Below, piece by piece: positions 1 through 25,141 of a stretch of DNA of 48,722 nt. The stretch comes from Clostridiales bacterium UBA4362 (lineage in GTDB: Bacteria; Bacillota; Clostridia; TANB77; CAG-508): contig DGSM01000045.1 in the NCBI GenBank assembly GCA_002393975.1, forward strand, positions 1-48,722, read 5' to 3'. The notes beneath the pieces are model-generated. The model worked only from the letters and a program-made list of their open reading frames with translations, was not told the DNA's origin and did not search any database. Every line of letters starts with the position of its first letter. Within the stretch, counting starts at the first letter, position 1. The translations under genes were made by a program, and so were the position numbers.

Positions 1-483
1 AACTCCAGTTTGTCCTTCATATTTTAAATAAAAGTCAAATGCAATATATGGTTTTGTTGATTCTGTTCCAAGATTATCTTCTTCAACTAATTCAGAAGTA
101 ATATAATATCCTGAAGTGTTTAAGTTAGCATTTACAATTCCTTTGTACATATTTAAATGACCAGCTGAACCAAGATCTCCTGCTGTTGAGCAAGGTACTA
201 TAGTTTGTGGCAATTGATTCATGTTACCCGACATTGTAATAGCTGAATTAATGTCAGCTTTTGTTATAGATGTTTTCCAATCATTTGCATCAGTACTAAT
301 TTCCAATCCATTAGTAGCTGCAACGTTTACATCAATTTGGTTAATACTAACGATTTGGTTAGCTGTGAACCATGCATAAGTAGATGTAATTAATAAAATT
401 AATGTTAATAATAGAAGAAGCAAAGTTGTTAATACCGATGTTCTTCTTTGATTTTGTTTTGCTTTTGTTTTTTTGTTACTCAT
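1..483 (-). CDS. TasA/camelysin-like secreted protein, N-terminal part only (gene runs off the left edge)
   Basis: Absent from the ORF track because it is truncated. The reverse complement of 1..483 is open in frame from the ATG at 483..481: MSNKKTKAKQNQRRTSVLTTLLLLLLTLILLITSTYAWFTANQIVSINQIDVNVAATNGLE... A GAGGTGGG Shine-Dalgarno lies at 486..493. The basic N-region, hydrophobic core and T-Y-A-W-F motif resemble the TasA/CalY SipW-type signal (TWAAFND / GTFAYFSD). Confidence 0.6.
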   Translation of the reverse strand, partial: MSNKKTKAKQNQRRTSVLTTLLLLLLTLILLITSTYAWFTANQIVSINQIDVNVAATNGLEISTDANDWKTSITKADINSAITMSGNMNQLPQTIVPCSTAGDLGSAGHLNMYKGIVNANLNTSGYYITSELVEEDNLGTESTKPYIAFDFYLKYEGQTGV

Positions 484-2270: not shown

Positions 2271-2301
2271 AAAAAATCAGATTCCATTCGAATCTGATTT
2301 T
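2271..2301. terminator. Bidirectional intrinsic terminator between convergent genes
   Basis: Perfect inverted repeat aaaaatcagattc (2271..2283) / gaatctgattttt (2289..2301) with loop cattc. A/T runs flank both sides. It lies between the stop at 2204 (+) and the stop at 2341 (-). Confidence 0.65.
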
Positions 2302-2340
2302 TATTTTTACTTATTATTATATTTGAAAATAAGGTAACTA

Positions 2341-3025: not shown

Positions 3026-4366
3026 TTATTGTTCATCTGTTGTATTCATTATTCTTATCATATTAATAAATATAATAACTGCAACAGGAATAAATATTGC
3101 AAAAAATAAACCAAAATTGTTACTTGCTACTTTTGAAATAGCACTAAGTATTAATAATTTCTTTACTATTTTACCTTTAATTTGACTAGAATTTATAGCA
3201 GGGTCTTCTACATCATTTTGTACACCTTTTGTAATAATTGTATATGAACCATCTTCATTTTTTGTGATAGCTTGAATTTCATGAGTAATTATTTTTCCTT
3301 CTAATTGTCCTTCTTTTCCGTTATAAGCTATATCATCACCAATTTTCAAAGTTGATGGATCAACATCTTTTGCTAAGATTATATCCCCTACTGAATATTT
3401 TGAAAGCATTGATTCAGTAGAAACGTTATAAATTCTTATTCCACCTATTGATAATTCATTGTTAGAGAATCTTTGTACGCAAACGATAAATAATAAAACA
3501 ACTATAAATATAAATACTAACCAATAAAGAACATCAGATATTATTGTAAATACCTTTGATACTTTAGGTTTTAAAACTCTCTTAGGTCTATTTTCAACAA
3601 TAGGTTCATCTAGTTTAATTTTCTTAGCTTTTATTGTTTTGTTTTCTGAAGTCGTATTATGCTTTTTAGTTTTTGGAGCAGAAACTTCTTTATTCTTTTT
3701 TTCTGCTTCCTTACTACTAGAATTCTTCACCTTAGGAACGCCGAACAAAACATCTGGTAACTTCTCTTTTCTTTTTCCTTTTACTTTGATACTTTCTTCA
3801 TTTATATCGTTTTCTTTATTTGTTCCCTTAGCTTTTTTTGTACTAGTATCATTCTTTTTATTTTTACTTTGTTCTTTTTCTTTAGATTTATTCTTATTTC
3901 TATTATTGCTTATGTTTTCTTCTTGTTTTTTATTATCTACATTTTCTTTCTTAGATTCTTTTTTAGTTTCTTTTTCTTTTTCTATTTTTATTTCTTTTTT
4001 TGCTTTAGGAATCTCTTTTTCTTCCACTTTAGATTTAGTTTCAGGCTCAACATCTACTATTCTCTTTTTGCGATTATTTCTAAAGTTTTTAAGTCTCGTA
4101 CTTAAATCAATATTATTTCTTTTTGGAATATTTTGACTAACTTTCTTCTCTTCTAATTCTTCCTCAAGTTCTTCCTTAATATTGTCCATCATAGAAGGTG
4201 TTTCTGTAATTTCAGAAACATTTGCTTTCCTTCTAACTCTAGACTTAGGTTTATTACTTTCATCAATTTCAGGCTCACTAATATTTACAGGAGCCTCATC
4301 AGTCATCCCCTTTTTCTTAACAACTATTTTTTTCTTTTTAATTGTTTCGTTATTAGAATCAACCAT
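3026..4366 (-). CDS. SipW-like (S26B, ER/archaeal-type) signal peptidase with a ~280-aa Lys/Glu-rich N-terminal cytoplasmic extension
   Basis: The C-terminal ~165 aa align by eye to the SipW copies in this window: TM (VLYWLVFIFIVVLLFIV), VSTESMLSKYSVGDIILAK versus ITSGSMEPTFYEGDIIFVK, IITHEI versus TTHRI, and a C-terminal TM. The GD of the GDxN box is replaced (GVQNDVED). The N-terminal 280 aa are low-complexity K/E/N. The start overlaps the upstream stop by 8 nt. Confidence 0.75.
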   Translation of the reverse strand: MVDSNNETIKKKKIVVKKKGMTDEAPVNISEPEIDESNKPKSRVRRKANVSEITETPSMMDNIKEELEEELEEKKVSQNIPKRNNIDLSTRLKNFRNNRKKRIVDVEPETKSKVEEKEIPKAKKEIKIEKEKETKKESKKENVDNKKQEENISNNRNKNKSKEKEQSKNKKNDTSTKKAKGTNKENDINEESIKVKGKRKEKLPDVLFGVPKVKNSSSKEAEKKNKEVSAPKTKKHNTTSENKTIKAKKIKLDEPIVENRPKRVLKPKVSKVFTIISDVLYWLVFIFIVVLLFIVCVQRFSNNELSIGGIRIYNVSTESMLSKYSVGDIILAKDVDPSTLKIGDDIAYNGKEGQLEGKIITHEIQAITKNEDGSYTIITKGVQNDVEDPAINSSQIKGKIVKKLLILSAISKVASNNFGLFFAIFIPVAVIIFINMIRIMNTTDEQ

Positions 4367-5471
4367 TACTCTCTACCTTATCAATAAATTTATCGAAGCT
4401 TTCCTTAAATACTTTTCTAATTTCTGTAAGAGTTGCAGTATGTGCAGTTCTTATTTGAGCAATTCTACCAGTTATTTTGCTTTCTAGCTCTTCTGGTGTT
4501 AAATCTGGATTAATTACAATTAATTGTTCTATCAATTGATTGGTAATAAAATCTCTAGCTTCTTTATTCTTTTCTTCAGCATTCTCTTCATCAATTCTAC
4601 TTAATGTATTTAATGCAAGATAATTAAGTAAGAATGTCTCATTTCCATATCTAATCATTGCTTGATTATCATCACTTTGATCTTTGTCAGAAGTTCTTTT
4701 TGTTTTATCATCAAGATTTTCTTGAATATAATCCCACAATCTCATTGCATATTGGAAATGTGTGTTTTTCAAAATCATATTTGTCTTTTTTATAGGAGGT
4801 CTAACTAAAGCTGCATGTATTTTGGCTAATGATTTGTAAACTTCCATTTGAGTTAAAATAGTAAACTCTAAATCTAAATGTTCGATTCTATCTAATAATT
4901 CTTTTGTATCATTTTTAGAATCCCCTTGTTTCTTACTAGATATCTCAAAAGAAATTCCAATAGCTTCATTTCCTAAAACAGTATGTCCATTATAAGCGAA
5001 CTTTTTCTCATCTTTTGCTTGTATAGACAATTTACTTAAAAGTGCTTCTTTTCTAACTGAAATAAAGTTTTTAGTGTTCTGTATTAAAGTATATATTAAT
5101 CTATTTTCGTATGTATCAAAAGTTTCTTCTTTATTAATATTCAAGATTTTAGCTGGTTTAACACCTTCTTCATCAATAGCTTGAATAAAGTTAGTATGTT
5201 TAGCCAAATCTTTAATACTTTCAACAGTAACTCTTTTAGCTTTTTCTATTTTAACTACTTCTTCTTCATTTATAATAAATCTGTTTGGATTCTTAAAAAT
5301 TGCATCCAAATGTGGAACTGCCATTTCTATTTCATCAATCCATTCCGTGTCTAACTCGACTTTTTCAAAGTCGGTATTGACACGGATTTCAGATTTAGTA
5401 TTGTTTAGGAATCTTGTAGTTAATTGTTCATTTTCTTGTTCATATAAATCAAAAACACTTAAATTACTCAT
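4359..5471 (-). CDS. McrC-N-terminal/DUF2357-like partner of the McrB-like NTPase; no nuclease motif seen
   Basis: 370-aa soluble helical protein 30 nt downstream of the McrB-like gene. The motifs TYENRLIYTLIQN and VRPPIKKTNMILKNTHFQYAMRLWDYI resemble what I remember of DUF2357, the region preceding the PD-(D/E)xK domain in McrC-like proteins. I find no convincing PD-(D/E)xK. The family call is tentative. Confidence 0.55.
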   Translation of the reverse strand: MSNLSVFDLYEQENEQLTTRFLNNTKSEIRVNTDFEKVELDTEWIDEIEMAVPHLDAIFKNPNRFIINEEEVVKIEKAKRVTVESIKDLAKHTNFIQAIDEEGVKPAKILNINKEETFDTYENRLIYTLIQNTKNFISVRKEALLSKLSIQAKDEKKFAYNGHTVLGNEAIGISFEISSKKQGDSKNDTKELLDRIEHLDLEFTILTQMEVYKSLAKIHAALVRPPIKKTNMILKNTHFQYAMRLWDYIQENLDDKTKRTSDKDQSDDNQAMIRYGNETFLLNYLALNTLSRIDEENAEEKNKEARDFITNQLIEQLIVINPDLTPEELESKITGRIAQIRTAHTATLTEIRKVFKESFDKFIDKVESNG

Positions 5472-5501
5472 TTGTAAAACTTAACAATCCTTTTTATAAT
5501 T

Positions 5502-7040
5502 TTAGGTTAATTTCTTTAATCTTAACATAAATTCAATACATTCATGCATTTTATCTTTGCCAAATGTTTTATTTAAAAAGTCTATATATGGATCGATTTC
5601 ATCTCTTATATAAGCAACGTTTAATTGTTCGAATTTTCTTAAAACTTTACGTGCTAAGAAGTAATCAACACCATCTATTTCATCTCCACCGCATCCAACA
5701 TATACTGGAACGAATTTTCCAATCTGCATTACAATACGGTTACCAAAAGCTATTCTGAAATGTTCAATAACATAGTTGTCCATTTGCTCTATTTTATTCA
5801 TTGTAGATTCTGATACAGGATGATCTTTCATAGCTTGTTGATATAATCCATTCAAATATGAATAGTTTATACTCCATGCATCTGTATCAACTGGATCAAA
5901 AGGTTGTCCTTTATCATTAATGTCTATAGGCATAGCTCTATCGTAAACCTTATCAGTTACCATGAATGTAGAATCATCATTATTGATTGTTCCTATATAC
6001 CATAGATTTGGAGATAATTTTATTTTTCCATCAAATAAATGCTTTGGATCGCCCTTCCAAGCAGATGGAACTAATTCAACTATCCATTCATCTTGGTTTG
6101 GCATTTCTAGAATAGATAGCATCTCTGCAAAATAATACTCAACACGGGCGATGTTCATCTCGTCTAATATTACTGTAAAGATATCATCTGAATATCCTGC
6201 TTTATATATTTCGGCTAAAACTTCACTTTCATTAAACTTCTTTGTGAACTCATTGAAGTAACCAAAAAGTTCTGTTCTATCACGCCATGAAGGCTGTACT
6301 GATGCAACACAAGAATCATGTTGATTAAATTTTCCCCAAGCATAAGCAAGAGATGTTTTACCAGTACCAGAGATACCTTGTAGGATAACTAACTTTGTTG
6401 AAGCTAGAGCAGCTATAAATAATCTCATCATATTTATATTGTAATAAAGTTTAAGTTTAGATGCTGCAAAGTTTCTAAATGCTTCGCATAGTTCTGGTAA
6501 AGTAAATGTATTACCATGATCTTGAATTTTGCTATCTTCAAGACGTTCATCAATTGCAACAAGCTTTGGAAAACGAAGTCCTGCACCATCGACTTTTTCA
6601 CCATTTTCATCTGATGAACCTTCTCCTTGTGGCTCGATTGTATTTGACTCATCAGGTGCTAAACCTAATTGAGAAACTTTCATTGCCATCAATTCATCTT
6701 TTTCTTTCATAAGGTCTACAACCTTATTATTTAATGTAGCAACTTCATCAAGAAGAGCATCTTGGTTTAGACCTCTCTTATTAAATTTAACTTTCTTTCT
6801 AGCAAGTAAGATGCATAATGCAACTACTAAGAAAATTATTAGTGCAGCTATGAATAAAGCTATTACTACTAAAACCCATTCAGGTTTGTCTAGACTAGTT
6901 TTATATTTTTCAAAAATTTCAACATATGCTGGAATATTAAATGTTGCTTTTATTCCTCTGAAAAATCCTTGAATTACTAGTATAAATACTGCTAAAAACT
7001 GTCCTAGAAAATCGTATAGAAATTTTGTAAATGTTTCCAT
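5502..7040 (-). CDS. Membrane-anchored McrB-family AAA+ NTPase (GTPase-type)
   Basis: Two N-terminal TM helices (aa ~14-30 and ~55-80) are followed by a coiled coil. Motifs:
- Walker A: GISGTGKT (aa 222-229)
- SVQPSWRDRTELFGYF
- Walker B plus McrB signature: VILDEMNIARVEYYFAEMLSILE (compare McrB DEINRA..FGEL..LLE)
- NLWYIGTINNDDS (compare IIGTMNTADRS, the NxxD box)
- DKVYDRAM (compare D.AL.RRF). Confidence 0.85.
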   Translation of the reverse strand: METFTKFLYDFLGQFLAVFILVIQGFFRGIKATFNIPAYVEIFEKYKTSLDKPEWVLVVIALFIAALIIFLVVALCILLARKKVKFNKRGLNQDALLDEVATLNNKVVDLMKEKDELMAMKVSQLGLAPDESNTIEPQGEGSSDENGEKVDGAGLRFPKLVAIDERLEDSKIQDHGNTFTLPELCEAFRNFAASKLKLYYNINMMRLFIAALASTKLVILQGISGTGKTSLAYAWGKFNQHDSCVASVQPSWRDRTELFGYFNEFTKKFNESEVLAEIYKAGYSDDIFTVILDEMNIARVEYYFAEMLSILEMPNQDEWIVELVPSAWKGDPKHLFDGKIKLSPNLWYIGTINNDDSTFMVTDKVYDRAMPIDINDKGQPFDPVDTDAWSINYSYLNGLYQQAMKDHPVSESTMNKIEQMDNYVIEHFRIAFGNRIVMQIGKFVPVYVGCGGDEIDGVDYFLARKVLRKFEQLNVAYIRDEIDPYIDFLNKTFGKDKMHECIEFMLRLKKLT

Positions 7041-10968: not shown

Positions 10969-11622
10969 TTATTTTGATTTTTTTGTTGTAGTTTTTTTAG
11001 TTACTCTCTTCTTTGTTGTTTTTGATGAAGTTTTCTTTGCAGAAGTTTTCTTAGGTTTAACTTCTTCTTCCTCTTCTTCTTCATCATCCTCATCTTCATC
11101 ATCTGATGAGCCATCTTTTATTTGCATAACTATTGTATATAATTCATATAAGAACAATAGTAATGTTGGTAAAACAACTAAGAATAGATATCCAAATTTA
11201 GATTCTAATACTTTTAAAACATAACCTACTTTAGCCATTTTTGATGCGCCATTAACAGGTCCAATTATGAAATTATAATCTAATGTTCTTCCATCACTAA
11301 GTTCATATTTATTTGTCTTAGATCTTTCATCAACACTTATATTATTTATTTTTGCTACACTGATACTAACTTCTCCATTGTATACTTCATAGCAAAATAC
11401 ATGATCATTTTTATTTAAATTTTTAGATTTAGTCACAAAAACTATATCACCCATAAAGAAAGGTGGTTGATTTTTTTCTAAATCTTTTGAATCGATAATA
11501 ATTAAAGAAGTATTTCCAAAAGTTGAAATGTGACTATCATTATAAGATAGTAAGCAAATTGTTGTAAATATTGCAATAATTGCATAAATAGTTACTAAAA
11601 TTGTTATAATAGTTTTCTTCAT
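10969..11622 (-). CDS. Degenerate SipW-like protein (catalytic Ser and His both lost) with an acidic-then-basic C-terminal tail
   Basis: Same size and topology as SipW: N-terminal TM, a ~120-aa beta domain and a C-terminal TM (GYLFLVVLPTLLLFLY). It aligns at FFMGDIVFV (compare YEGDIIFV). The serine box reads IIDSKDLEKNQPP and the histidine box reads SVAKI. The tail is SSDDEDEDDEEEEEEEVKPKKTSAKKTSSKTTKKRVTKKTTTKKSK. Confidence 0.7.
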   Translation of the reverse strand: MKKTIITILVTIYAIIAIFTTICLLSYNDSHISTFGNTSLIIIDSKDLEKNQPPFFMGDIVFVTKSKNLNKNDHVFCYEVYNGEVSISVAKINNISVDERSKTNKYELSDGRTLDYNFIIGPVNGASKMAKVGYVLKVLESKFGYLFLVVLPTLLLFLYELYTIVMQIKDGSSDDEDEDDEEEEEEEVKPKKTSAKKTSSKTTKKRVTKKTTTKKSK

Positions 11623-12803: not shown

Positions 12804-12836
12804 TAAAAAAATAAGAGCCCTATAAGGGCTCTTTTG
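12804..12836. terminator. Bidirectional intrinsic terminator (end of operon A and of the 308-aa gene)
   Basis: Hairpin agagccc (12814..12820) / gggctct (12826..12832) with loop tataa. An A-run lies upstream and TTTGTT downstream. The last codons of the 160-aa ORF overlap the stem. Confidence 0.6.
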
Positions 12837-13302
12837 TTGATTGAGTATATGTTTTTACTCTTTTTATTTTTTCTTGTTTTCTAATATAGTTATCTCTAAC
12901 CTTAAAAACAATTCCTATTGCAATTAGCATAAAGAAAAATCTAGTTATCTTTGATTCAAAGAAAGAAAAGAAGTATTTCAATCTAAAAGAATATAATCCT
13001 ACAATATTATTCTTATCAGATCTAAAGTTTTCGATATAATGTGCATCGTCTTGCTTGGTTAAATAAGTTCCATCTCCATTTGAATTAAAGATATTTGTAA
13101 TAATATAATTTCCAAATTTATCTCTAACTACAACCTTTTCTCCTTCATTATAGATGTCATTGGTTTTATTTGTTTGTACAAATAAAAGGCTTCCTGAAGA
13201 ACGATAAAGTTTTATTCTATTTACTTTAAAAACAATTAATACTAAAACAAATAATAATAGTATTATGGCTACATTAGTCATTTTCTTCTTCATTATTTGC
13301 AA
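12820..13302 (-). CDS. Degenerate SipW-like protein (His box lost, GDN box lost)
   Basis: N-terminal TM and C-terminal TM (FFFMLIAIGIVF). SSGSLLFV aligns with TSGSMEPT, so the serine may be retained. The histidine box is GNYIITNI (no His) and the GDSN box is KQDDA. It overlaps the upstream intact sipW by 29 nt. Confidence 0.6.
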   Translation of the reverse strand: MQIMKKKMTNVAIILLLFVLVLIVFKVNRIKLYRSSGSLLFVQTNKTNDIYNEGEKVVVRDKFGNYIITNIFNSNGDGTYLTKQDDAHYIENFRSDKNNIVGLYSFRLKYFFSFFESKITRFFFMLIAIGIVFKVRDNYIRKQEKIKRVKTYTQSTKEPL

Positions 13303-23414: not shown

Positions 23415-25124
23415 TTATTTTGAATCAACTACAACTTTAAGATCAATTTCATCTTCTATAGTATCAACATCTACGTTGTTCTTTGTGATGCAATAGAAGT
23501 TTTCTATTTTATCTAAAGTTTCAATTAATTTTGGTAATTTAGATTCATCTAAATCATCTTTTGCTAGATTAATTCCTAAAAGATTGTATTTATCTTTAAT
23601 TAAGAATGCTATATCTTTTTCTTCTAAAATACTAATATTATTTAGTATTGTGAAATATGGCCATCTAGCGAATTCTTGTAATGTGTCTATATAATCAACA
23701 ATTGCTTCATCGCTCATTGTCTTATCTTTATTAATAAGATGTGTAAATAAATATTCATAAAAAGATGCAGCAAGTTTAATTGCATCGCAATATGTTGATT
23801 GATCGTTTAATTTAGTTGCTATTGTTTGATAAACTTTTTCTTTTGCCATTTGTTTATATAAGTCTTTATTTTGTAATGCAAGTTCTGTTTGTTTTGGCAA
23901 TGCATTCTTAGAGAATATTCCAAAGTTCATCTTTATAATTCTATTATCATCTTTATCTATATTTTTTCTTAATTGTGTATAAGAATTTTTATATTTATCT
24001 TTTTCTTTATAGATTGCAATGATTTCATCAACTATTGGTTTGTATTTTAAATATAATCTATACTCTTCTAAACTATGTTTTAATTTCATTAAGCTATCAC
24101 AAGTTTTGTCTAGCTCTTCATCTTTTATTCTTGGCATTCCTGTATATTCAGAAACTAGTTTAGAAATATTATCTACAGTATAATCACTAGGTCTTATCTC
24201 TTTGTTTCTAAAGCTTTCAACTATTGATTTAGCATCATGTAATTTACTTTCTAGAGACATTGTTTTATATTGAGCATATTTGCCCCAAATTTCATCTTTA
24301 GGAAATTGTTTATATAATGCTTGTTTCTTTTCTTCTAAAGCTTTCTCAATCTTCTTTTCATTTTGATTATAAATATATTGAATATTTAGCTCTATATATG
24401 TGATTATTTCAGGACATTTCCAATATATTTCTTCAAACTTAGTTTTAATCTCTGAACTATTTAAATCGTCTTTATCTAGTCTATCGATAAATACTGTTAG
24501 ATATTCAGTTACATATTTATTATATTTAAAATCTGCTGCAGTGATTTGTAATCCAACACTTCTAAATTTAGTAATAGCATCTGCTATTGCATTATTTACT
24601 ATTCCTAAATCTTTTTTATAATAATATCTTAAAACTAATATATCTTTATCAAGACCTATTTTTTCAAAAGCTGTATTATATTCATTTAATAAATATAGTT
24701 TATCTTCTAGTTCTTCTAATTCTTCATTTGAGTTAGGAGAAGAATTATATTTTATAGAATACAATTCATTATATCTTTTCTTAGCTTCATCATATATTTT
24801 ATCTTTATAAACATAGTATTTAGCAGCAACATCTTCAATTCTTTGAGCATATTTGCTATTAGCTCTAATTCCATTTTTTGGAAGTGCTCCAAGAATTTCT
24901 TTATCTATTCCTACTTCTTCTTGAATTTTTTCAAATTCTCTTTCTAGTAAATCTTTTGCTGCTTCATTAGCTTCAGCTGTCGCTGTTTCATTCATTTTTA
25001 TTGCAGCTGTTAAATCTCCAGAAGTTAAATTGCCTTCTTGAGCTGCGGCTGCATATTCATTTCTTAAGAATATTAGAAAATTGTTGATCTCATTAAATGA
25101 ATTAATTAATCCGATATTTGTCAT
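23415..25124 (-). CDS. Orphan all-helical cytoplasmic protein (569 aa)
   Basis: Long ORF with an AGGAGA SD, 17 nt after the 740-aa gene and 38 nt before the giant gene. It has no TM or signal and is Lys/Glu/Tyr-rich and helical in character. I recognise no family. Confidence 0.8.
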   Translation of the reverse strand: MTNIGLINSFNEINNFLIFLRNEYAAAAQEGNLTSGDLTAAIKMNETATAEANEAAKDLLEREFEKIQEEVGIDKEILGALPKNGIRANSKYAQRIEDVAAKYYVYKDKIYDEAKKRYNELYSIKYNSSPNSNEELEELEDKLYLLNEYNTAFEKIGLDKDILVLRYYYKKDLGIVNNAIADAITKFRSVGLQITAADFKYNKYVTEYLTVFIDRLDKDDLNSSEIKTKFEEIYWKCPEIITYIELNIQYIYNQNEKKIEKALEEKKQALYKQFPKDEIWGKYAQYKTMSLESKLHDAKSIVESFRNKEIRPSDYTVDNISKLVSEYTGMPRIKDEELDKTCDSLMKLKHSLEEYRLYLKYKPIVDEIIAIYKEKDKYKNSYTQLRKNIDKDDNRIIKMNFGIFSKNALPKQTELALQNKDLYKQMAKEKVYQTIATKLNDQSTYCDAIKLAASFYEYLFTHLINKDKTMSDEAIVDYIDTLQEFARWPYFTILNNISILEEKDIAFLIKDKYNLLGINLAKDDLDESKLPKLIETLDKIENFYCITKNNVDVDTIEDEIDLKVVVDSK

Positions 25125-25141
25125 TTTGATATATCTCCTAT

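Follow-up and report, generated by a model that had tools for sequence, protein, structure and literature searches.

A predicted McrB-like GTPase with a membrane anchor and a DUF2357 partner in a SipW-type operon of Clostridiales bacterium UBA4362

McrBC is the textbook GTP-dependent restriction enzyme. What would an McrBC-like gene pair do among genes for signal peptidases and signal-anchored proteins? The question is raised by contig DGSM01000045.1 of Clostridiales bacterium UBA4362 (GenBank assembly GCA_002393975.1). The window analyzed here is the whole stretch of 48,722 nucleotides (nt), read on the forward strand; it is AT-rich (∼29% GC), and nearly all coding is on the minus strand. An earlier note, made from the sequence of the window, had described three adjacent open reading frames (ORFs) of 512, 370 and 446 amino acids (aa) as a membrane-anchored McrB-family ATPase, a DUF2357-like partner with no apparent nuclease and a SipW-like product. 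It had left two alternatives: an McrBC-derived motor put to a new use in building the envelope or fibres, or a membrane-associated defence module that happens to sit within the operon. The three ORFs are as described, the quoted ATPase motif strings are all present in the sequence, and the stop of the partner gene overlaps the start of the SipW-like gene by 8 nt (4359-4366, ATGGTTGA on the minus strand). We think it reasonably probable that the ATPase and its partner are the McrB- and McrC-like core of a CoCoPALM-type system, that is, an McrBC-derived GTPase module without DNA-binding domain or nuclease, held on the cytoplasmic side of the membrane by a transmembrane helix and helical stalk within a chromosomal operon for SipW-type processing and export of several signal-anchored proteins. 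The pair probably aids the building of a surface structure.

The ATPase and its DUF2357 partner

Searched as a single sequence, the 512-aa protein gave no AAA_5 or McrB match in direct Pfam and NCBIfam scans, and none against the PDB. A family profile of 38 orthologues had E. coli McrB as its sole meaningful PDB match (E = 2e-3), and a broader profile of 46 relatives matched McrB chains only (E = 8e-6). When the ATPase family was aligned with E. coli K-12 McrB by hhalign, a probability of 96% (E = 3.9e-9) was obtained over 147 columns that take in both Walker motifs and the Asn/Asp signature. The AAA_5 group comprises McrB as well as the MoxR-type chaperones, and 30 of the 46 diverse relatives individually matched Pfam AAA_5. 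The PADLOC model PDC-M26A (724 positions) matched the ATPase core only (aa 197-320, E = 7e-32). As judged from these profiles, the 512-aa protein is an AAA+ protein of the McrB lineage, in agreement with the kinship that the earlier note had proposed from motifs.

The Asn/Asp signature had been read as an NxxD box, and this reading has to be revised. Among 136 diverse relatives N353 and D355 were invariant (136/136), position 354 was variable, and position 356 was D (99) or E (32), accounting for 131 of the 136. The signature is therefore N-x-D-[D/E] rather than NxxD, placing the protein in the 'NxD' branch of Bell et al. It was present in all retrieved relatives, and the corresponding residues of E. 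coli McrB are NTAD. One of the major branches of McrB-like GTPases is characterised by NxD, after which E or a second D usually stands (Bell et al., eLife 2024; PMC11090510).

The N-terminus, where two transmembrane (TM) helices had been proposed, yielded a mixed result. The helix at aa 56-74 is robust, and a strong TM segment occupies this position in nearly all close relatives. The segment at aa 5-23 is hydrophobic or amphipathic and marginal as a TM helix; its seven invariant residues suggest that it makes a defined contact and is not just an anchor. The robust helix is followed by RKKVKFNKR, and six Lys or Arg residues lie within aa 81-95, so that the ATPase domain is predicted to be cytoplasmic. 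A predicted helix with a partial heptad pattern at aa 93-120, a putative coiled-coil stalk, comes next. The N-terminal 160 aa consist of TM, helix and low-complexity linker, and no DNA-binding family was matched there (Pfam).

The partner gene begins 30 nt downstream of the ATPase gene. As the earlier note had suspected, its product carries Pfam DUF2357 (PF09823), with 42.7 bits against a cut-off of 23.3, and PF09823 is precomputed for 120 of 120 partner homologues among the matches listed. Neither the whole 370-aa protein nor its C-terminal 185 aa matched a PD-(D/E)xK family at E ≤ 10 (Pfam). The 608-aa partner of a plasmid-borne relative, by contrast, matched both DUF2357 and PDDEXK_7. By these searches, the 370-aa protein is a DUF2357 partner without detectable nuclease, as had been claimed. 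Its conserved core is aa 39-294 (hhalign with a 668-aa relative). Within the core, a predicted hairpin (aa 153-182) with the nearly invariant K153 and K156 is a candidate 'finger'; the C-terminal ∼70 aa are predicted to be helical, with a predicted local distance difference test (pLDDT) score of only 38-55.

Conservation of the operon and architecture of relatives

The pair lies in a minus-strand unit of ten genes (11622->2341) with spacings of -56 to +41 nt, and strong terminator-like hairpins are confined to the two unit ends (12813-12833 and 2272-2302). The order is: an inactive SipW-like gene, a gene for a 'TYAKY' protein, an active SipW-like peptidase gene, a 'TYAKY' paralogue and the gene for a 328-aa signal-anchored protein; then those for a 331-aa cytoplasmic protein, the ATPase, the DUF2357 partner, the 446-aa SipW-like peptidase and another 'TYAKY' paralogue. 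Coordinates are given in Table 1.

When one genome was scanned for each GTDB species, the ATPase turned up in at least 582 species. The carriers are almost all uncultured gut metagenome-assembled genomes labelled Bacilli, Tenericutes, Clostridium sp. CAG or Erysipelotrichaceae, and include closed chromosomes of 1.26 and 1.55 Mb. The ATPase forms >8000 clusters at 90% identity, nearly all of ∼508 aa and 66-70% identical; the partner forms 2471 clusters at 90% identity, 45-47% identical. No full-length ATPase copy of this clade was found on plasmids, phages or IMG/VR contigs.

Neighbours were sought by tblastn in 84 loci, each from a different species, taken from the genomes of the GTDB scan and from metagenomes. 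ATPase and partner were present in all 84 loci, the SipW-like gene in 83, the 331-aa protein in 72 and the small signal-anchored proteins in 47-79. A SipW-like gene directly followed the partner gene in 79 of the 84 loci. The partner measured 360-410 aa in all 84. Median identity was 64% for the ATPase, compared with 28-44% for the neighbours. The outer flanks in the window are housekeeping genes, namely two class II aminoacyl-tRNA synthetases of 652 and 406 aa (one of them HisS-like, one ThrS), PolC and a CTP_transf_1 cytidylyltransferase (CdsA). In this neighbour survey, which the earlier note had called for, the pair belongs to a conserved operon of the core genome and not to a defence island. 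No nuclease or other recognisable effector was found in or beside the pair in Pfam and PADLOC scans.

An exhaustive HMMER search returned 8079 ATPase representatives at 50% clustering, with three N-terminal architectures: one or two TM segments, four or five TM segments, or a soluble region of 400-500 aa. Soluble relatives occur on plasmids, beside transposases, and on one unverified fecal 'Bacteriophage sp.' scaffold, and their partners measure 600-690 aa. IMG/VR yielded no relative at all, and phage collections no close one. The plasmid relatives are soluble forms only; in the inspected neighbourhoods the partner has 608-631 aa, and PDDEXK_7 was detected in one of them (B. pseudomycoides). 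TM-anchored relatives at 33-43% identity retain the association with the peptidase and with 'TYxKY' proteins in part. In locus L090 the ATPase and partner are followed by a SipW-like gene, and in locus L092 a homologue of the 281-aa protein is retained.

A locus of the class with four or five TM segments (L088:59-8915) encodes, in this order, a 366-aa weakly SipW-like protein, the ATPase, a 464-aa DUF2357 protein and an ABC-transporter ATPase. The DUF2357 match of the 464-aa protein is sub-threshold (20.4 bits against a cut-off of 23.3). This locus may be a different membrane-linked variant.

Table 1. Coordinates of genes, protein segments and motifs in the window
Feature	Position (aa)	Position (nt)	Strand	Remarks
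Membrane-anchored McrB-like AAA+ GTPase (predicted), NxD branch, 512 aa		5502..7040	-	Most conserved gene of the cluster
Marginal hydrophobic/amphipathic N-terminal segment of ATPase	5-23	6972..7028	-	Kyte-Doolittle 1.7; invariant F7, L8, Y9, F11, L12, Q14, F15
Robust TM helix of ATPase	56-74	6819..6875	-	Mean Kyte-Doolittle 3.5
Predicted helix of ATPase, putative coiled-coil stalk	93-125	6666..6764	-	Partial heptad pattern; low-confidence model region
Walker A, GISGTGKT	222-229	6354..6377	-	
Walker B, VILDEMN	290-296	6153..6173	-	
Signature N353-N-D355-D356	353-356	5973..5984	-	Part of INNDDS, aa 352-357
DKVYDRAM of ATPase	363-370			
McrC-like DUF2357 partner, 370 aa		4359..5471	-	No nuclease domain detected
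Pfam DUF2357 (PF09823) stretch of partner	55-151	5019..5309	-	
SipW/archaeal-type signal peptidase I, 446 aa		3026..4366	-	TIGR02228 at aa 276-438 (nt 3053-3541)
Low-complexity N-terminal extension of 446-aa peptidase, ∼275 aa		3542-4366	-	Rich in Lys and Glu
SipW-type peptidase, 204 aa		9759..10373	-	Catalytic Ser (TESMKP) and His (THR) motifs
SipW-like pseudo-peptidase (probable), 217 aa		10969..11622	-	Without catalytic Ser/His; acidic, then basic C-terminal tail; first gene of unit
SipW-like pseudo-peptidase (probable), 160 aa		12820..13302	-	Without Ser/His motifs; tblastn match in 0/84 other loci
SipW-type peptidase, 184 aa		13274..13828	-	SGSMEP and THR motifs
'TYAKY'-family protein, signal-anchored, 211 aa		10318..10953	-	TM, T-F-A-V-F, IAxWxIxVN, IAPGxxG
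'TYAKY' paralogue, signal-anchored, 224 aa		9104..9778	-	A4 hidden Markov model (HMM), E 1e-7
'TYAKY' paralogue, signal-anchored, 218 aa		2341..2997	-	A4 HMM, E 8e-8; last gene of unit
'TYAKY' paralogue, 210 aa		1572..2204	+	Opposite strand to unit
Signal-anchored protein, 328 aa		8097..9083	-	S-F-G-R-Y motif after TM; homologue in 74/84 loci
Cytoplasmic protein, 331 aa		7082..8077	-	Directly 5′ of ATPase, also in distant L091; homologue in 72/84 loci
Membrane-anchored protein, 281 aa		610..1455	-	Homologue in 53/84 loci and beside distant ATPase in L092
Signal-anchored giant protein, 3174 aa		13852..23376	-	G/N/T repeat-rich; no Pfam match
Bidirectional terminator-like hairpin		2272..2302	.	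Closes minus-strand unit 11622->2341

Peptidases, signal-anchored proteins and neighbouring genes

The window encodes five SipW-like paralogues, three of which have the catalytic Ser and His motifs. The TIGR02228 cut-off (51.85 bits) was passed by two window proteins, the 446-aa peptidase with 69.2 bits and another with 55.4 bits; the Peptidase_S24 cut-off was passed by two and that of Peptidase_S26 by one. The two paralogues without catalytic motifs are probably, to judge by their sequences, pseudo-peptidases. Both (10969-11622 and 12820-13302) retain the two-TM architecture. They may serve as binding or platform subunits.

The charged extension of the 446-aa peptidase, reported in the earlier note, is real. 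The orthologous peptidases of 79 related loci are mostly short (median 198 aa), with just 3 that reach 320 aa or more; the extension is lineage-specific. Since this charged tail is not conserved, the earlier idea of a motor that works on it finds no support.

The four 'TYAKY' paralogues, of ∼200 aa, have in common a TM segment followed by T-[YF]-[AS]-x-[YF], IAxWxIxVN and IAPGxxGYFDL. The family makes up 2366 clusters at 90% identity in public data, none with a Pfam domain or a name. Homology to TasA was considered and rejected at sequence level: hhalign gave a probability of 2.9% with a TasA query whose mature part (aa 28-261) is identical to PDB 8AUR. The likeness is one of motif alone, between T-[YF]-A-x-[YF] after the TM of the 'TYAKY' proteins and T-W-A-A-F at the TasA cleavage site.

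The 331-aa protein matched no family, structure or PADLOC model, and may be a third core component. Its interpretation as a degenerate EAL domain was discarded, since neither Pfam nor the PDB supported it.

The region 5′ of the ten-gene unit holds a further pair of SipW-like genes, of which one is active and the other inactive, and the gene for the 3174-aa signal-anchored protein, which is presumed to be a surface cargo or adhesin. A homologue of this giant protein stands beside the cluster in at least 50 of the 84 loci, a count bounded by the retrieved flank length. Two large ORFs without a Pfam match (569 aa and 740 aa; 23415-27364, minus strand) separate it from the housekeeping genes; homologues of the 569-aa product were found in 23 related loci and of the 740-aa product in none. 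In related genomes the sporulation genes veg, sipL and yunB are located a few kb downstream of the cluster, outside the conserved block.

Known systems and possible roles of the pair

This architecture received its name, CoCoPALM, from Bell et al. (PMC11090510), who connected it with the assembly of pili in one paragraph, with no experiments and no gene-level description; contrary to what the earlier note had believed, it is not undescribed. In their account, which defers the subject to a later publication, coiled coils are usually present on both the McrB and the McrC homologue, and the N-terminal domain of the GTPase is reported to be homologous to FtsB. No follow-up was found in the literature on CoCoPALM, on DUF2357, on McrB with SipW or TasA, or on McrBC in pilus assembly. 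The pair in the window resembles CoCoPALM in its NxD-branch McrB-like GTPase with an N-terminal TM and helical region, in its adjacent DUF2357 McrC homologue and in its tight association with genes of signal-peptidase families, and nothing contradicts membership. By these features it is a strongly conserved member of a named and uncharacterised kind.

With McrBC of E. coli and Thermococcus the pair shares the AAA+ GTPase core (Walker A, Walker B, a sensor-1-like Asn signature and a downstream Arg) and a partner gene immediately downstream that encodes the N-terminal (DUF2357) domain of McrC. McrBC has a DNA-binding N-terminal domain, NxxD and PD-(D/E)xK, whereas here a TM segment and stalk replace the first, the signature is NxD[D/E], and no nuclease is detected. 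The genes described here sit in a core-genome operon rather than a restriction island, and the window partner lacks similarity to E. coli McrC. CoCoNuT and the soluble NxD relatives of McrBC, including those of PDC-M26A type, share the ATPase module (30-40% identity, GTAN.D[DE]ST) but differ in their soluble N-terminal regions (400-500 aa) and long partners (600-690 aa). The full component set of PADLOC PDC-M26 is absent: PADLOC gave no match for the partner, the 331-aa protein or the peptidase.

The surroundings of the pair recall SipW-TasA-TapA of B. subtilis and SipW-BsaA/B/C of C. perfringens, where genes for SipW/archaeal-type peptidases likewise neighbour those for several small secreted proteins with signal anchors. 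Some type IV pilus-associated genes are required in C. perfringens if the BsaA polymer is to be exported efficiently (PMC11580942); this, by analogy, is a precedent for a dedicated export apparatus that aids a SipW-dependent polymer. The known SipW/TasA operons contain no McrBC-like genes, while here the subunits have no detectable TasA/Peptidase_M73 homology and there are multiple peptidase paralogues, some inactive. Type IV pilus and type II secretion systems offer a functional analogy: a cytoplasmic hexameric NTPase, a membrane platform, and extraction of signal-anchored subunits once a dedicated peptidase has cleaved them. Their proteins come from unrelated families, a PilB/GspE secretion ATPase and the prepilin peptidase PilD, as against an AAA+ McrB-like GTPase and SipW-type I peptidases in the present case.

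From these comparisons the following sequence of events can be imagined: (i) the ATPase would form a ring, perhaps hexameric, beneath the membrane, by analogy with the solved McrBC complexes; (ii) the DUF2357 partner would insert into the ring and stimulate GTP hydrolysis, with the hairpin as the candidate finger; (iii) the nucleotide cycle would be relayed through the stalk, the helical C-terminus of the partner and the 331-aa protein to SipW-like proteins, both active and inactive, that would make up a membrane platform and with which a physical link is supposed; and (iv) cleavage, extraction and polymerisation of the four 'TYAKY' subunits, and perhaps display of the 3174-aa protein, would be gated or driven, giving a surface fibre or pilus. 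In its boldest form, the proposal is that the pair and the 331-aa protein are the GTP-powered engine of an unrecognised Sec/SipW-dependent pilus or fibre pathway with 'TYAKY' subunits and the giant adhesin as tip or cargo, and that this pathway belongs to the core equipment of a large clade of uncultured gut Bacilli with small genomes. We hold this extended form to be possible rather than probable.

Several observations weigh against a membrane-tethered McrBC-derived module of a SipW-type operon. AlphaFold2 models built from shallow alignments had a mean pLDDT of 53.8 for the ATPase and 66.4 for the partner, and Foldseek searches with both models against the PDB returned noise only (best E 0.016 and 2.1); with models this poor, a ring, an inserted finger and a missing nuclease fold are all read from the sequence. 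By hhalign, the partner family showed no similarity to E. coli McrC, nor to the plasmid DUF2357-PDDEXK protein, so that its DUF2357 membership rests on the Pfam model. The FtsB/DivIC likeness of the ATPase N-terminus was not reproduced: Pfam DivIC gave no match at E ≤ 10, and hhalign with an unverified E. coli FtsB sequence gave a probability of 1.3%. Comparison of 27 members of the 'TYAKY' family with Pfam, NCBIfam and the PDB gave no match, and no similarity to TasA or another pilin. Two relatives depart from the expected setting. In one locus (L087:4692-9482), a pair of paralogous ATPases, each TM-anchored, is encoded together with a DUF2357-like protein of 604 aa among giant leucine-rich repeat and GH3 proteins, with no signal peptidase within 8 kb. 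In another (L091:721-8695; logan SRR26557943_27355), a TM-anchored relative with 38% identity comes right after a prophage lysis cassette (DUF859, holin, M23-LysM endolysin). The order there is a gene like that of the 331-aa protein, the ATPase, a 324-aa DUF2357-like partner and a protein with a 'TYYKY' motif. The contig ends there, and this relative may be prophage cargo or a mere neighbour.

The prophage-adjacent relative would suit the second alternative of the earlier note, in which the pair is a membrane-associated McrBC-like anti-phage or abortive-infection module, merely embedded among envelope genes, that senses invading nucleic acid or envelope damage and acts through some further effector. 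Other points in its favour are that PDC-M26A, which matches the ATPase region, is a candidate-defence model, that soluble relatives lie on plasmids beside transposases with a DUF2357 and PDDEXK_7 partner, or on the unverified phage scaffold, and that the rest of the NxD branch is predicted to be defensive (Bell et al.; PMC11090510). Set against this, the pair has no recognisable effector in it or next to it, and the partner has no PADLOC match. Fixed peptidase/subunit synteny in 84 loci and occurrence in at least 582 species, with an ATPase 60-70% identical, are the opposite of what patchy, fast-evolving defence genes display; the flanks are housekeeping genes, and neither an IMG/VR copy nor a full-length plasmid copy was found. 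We regard a defence role as quite improbable. Between the two original alternatives, the repurposed motor is better supported, the pair being co-operonic with SipW-type peptidases and secreted proteins in 84 of 84 loci, and defence is disfavoured.

A gentler departure from the export module makes the pair a MoxR-like AAA+ chaperone or quality-control system that folds, inserts or recycles the 3174-aa protein or the peptidase complex, with no part in fibre polymerisation. The AAA_5 matches of the relatives, the co-conservation of the giant signal-anchored protein, the setting of L087 among giant proteins without a peptidase and the protein-binding roles suggested by inactive peptidase paralogues would all fit. 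The tightest linkage, though, is to the SipW-like gene and the small 'TYAKY' proteins rather than to the giant protein, and we find this unlikely; as it differs from the export module in the product only, it is a variant and not an opposite. We give very little credence to a role in cell division or sporulation, in which an FtsB-like TM and coiled coil would bring the GTPase to the septum or forespore membrane. It draws on the reported FtsB homology (Bell et al.; PMC11090510) and on veg, sipL and yunB nearby in related genomes, but the FtsB/DivIC likeness was not recovered in our Pfam and hhalign comparisons, the operon contains no division genes, and the sporulation genes lie outside the conserved block.

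To the published outline of CoCoPALM the present analysis adds (i) a parts list, in which a cytoplasmic core of three genes is joined by SipW paralogues, some active and some inactive, by four putative subunits from one orphan family and by a giant protein; (ii) the invariant NxD[D/E] signature; (iii) conservation statistics over 84 loci; and (iv) the contrast with soluble relatives that have long partners. An McrBC stripped of its DNA-binding and nuclease parts and fixed to the membrane within a secretion operon would show that a defence motor has been re-used as envelope machinery. Hundreds of uncultured gut species, whose genomes measure 1.2-1.5 Mb, have kept the cluster, so it probably matters to them for attachment or surface building. 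If the pair is indeed the engine of a pilus or fibre, it would represent a new mechanism of bacterial pilus biogenesis and the first non-defence function shown for an McrBC machine.

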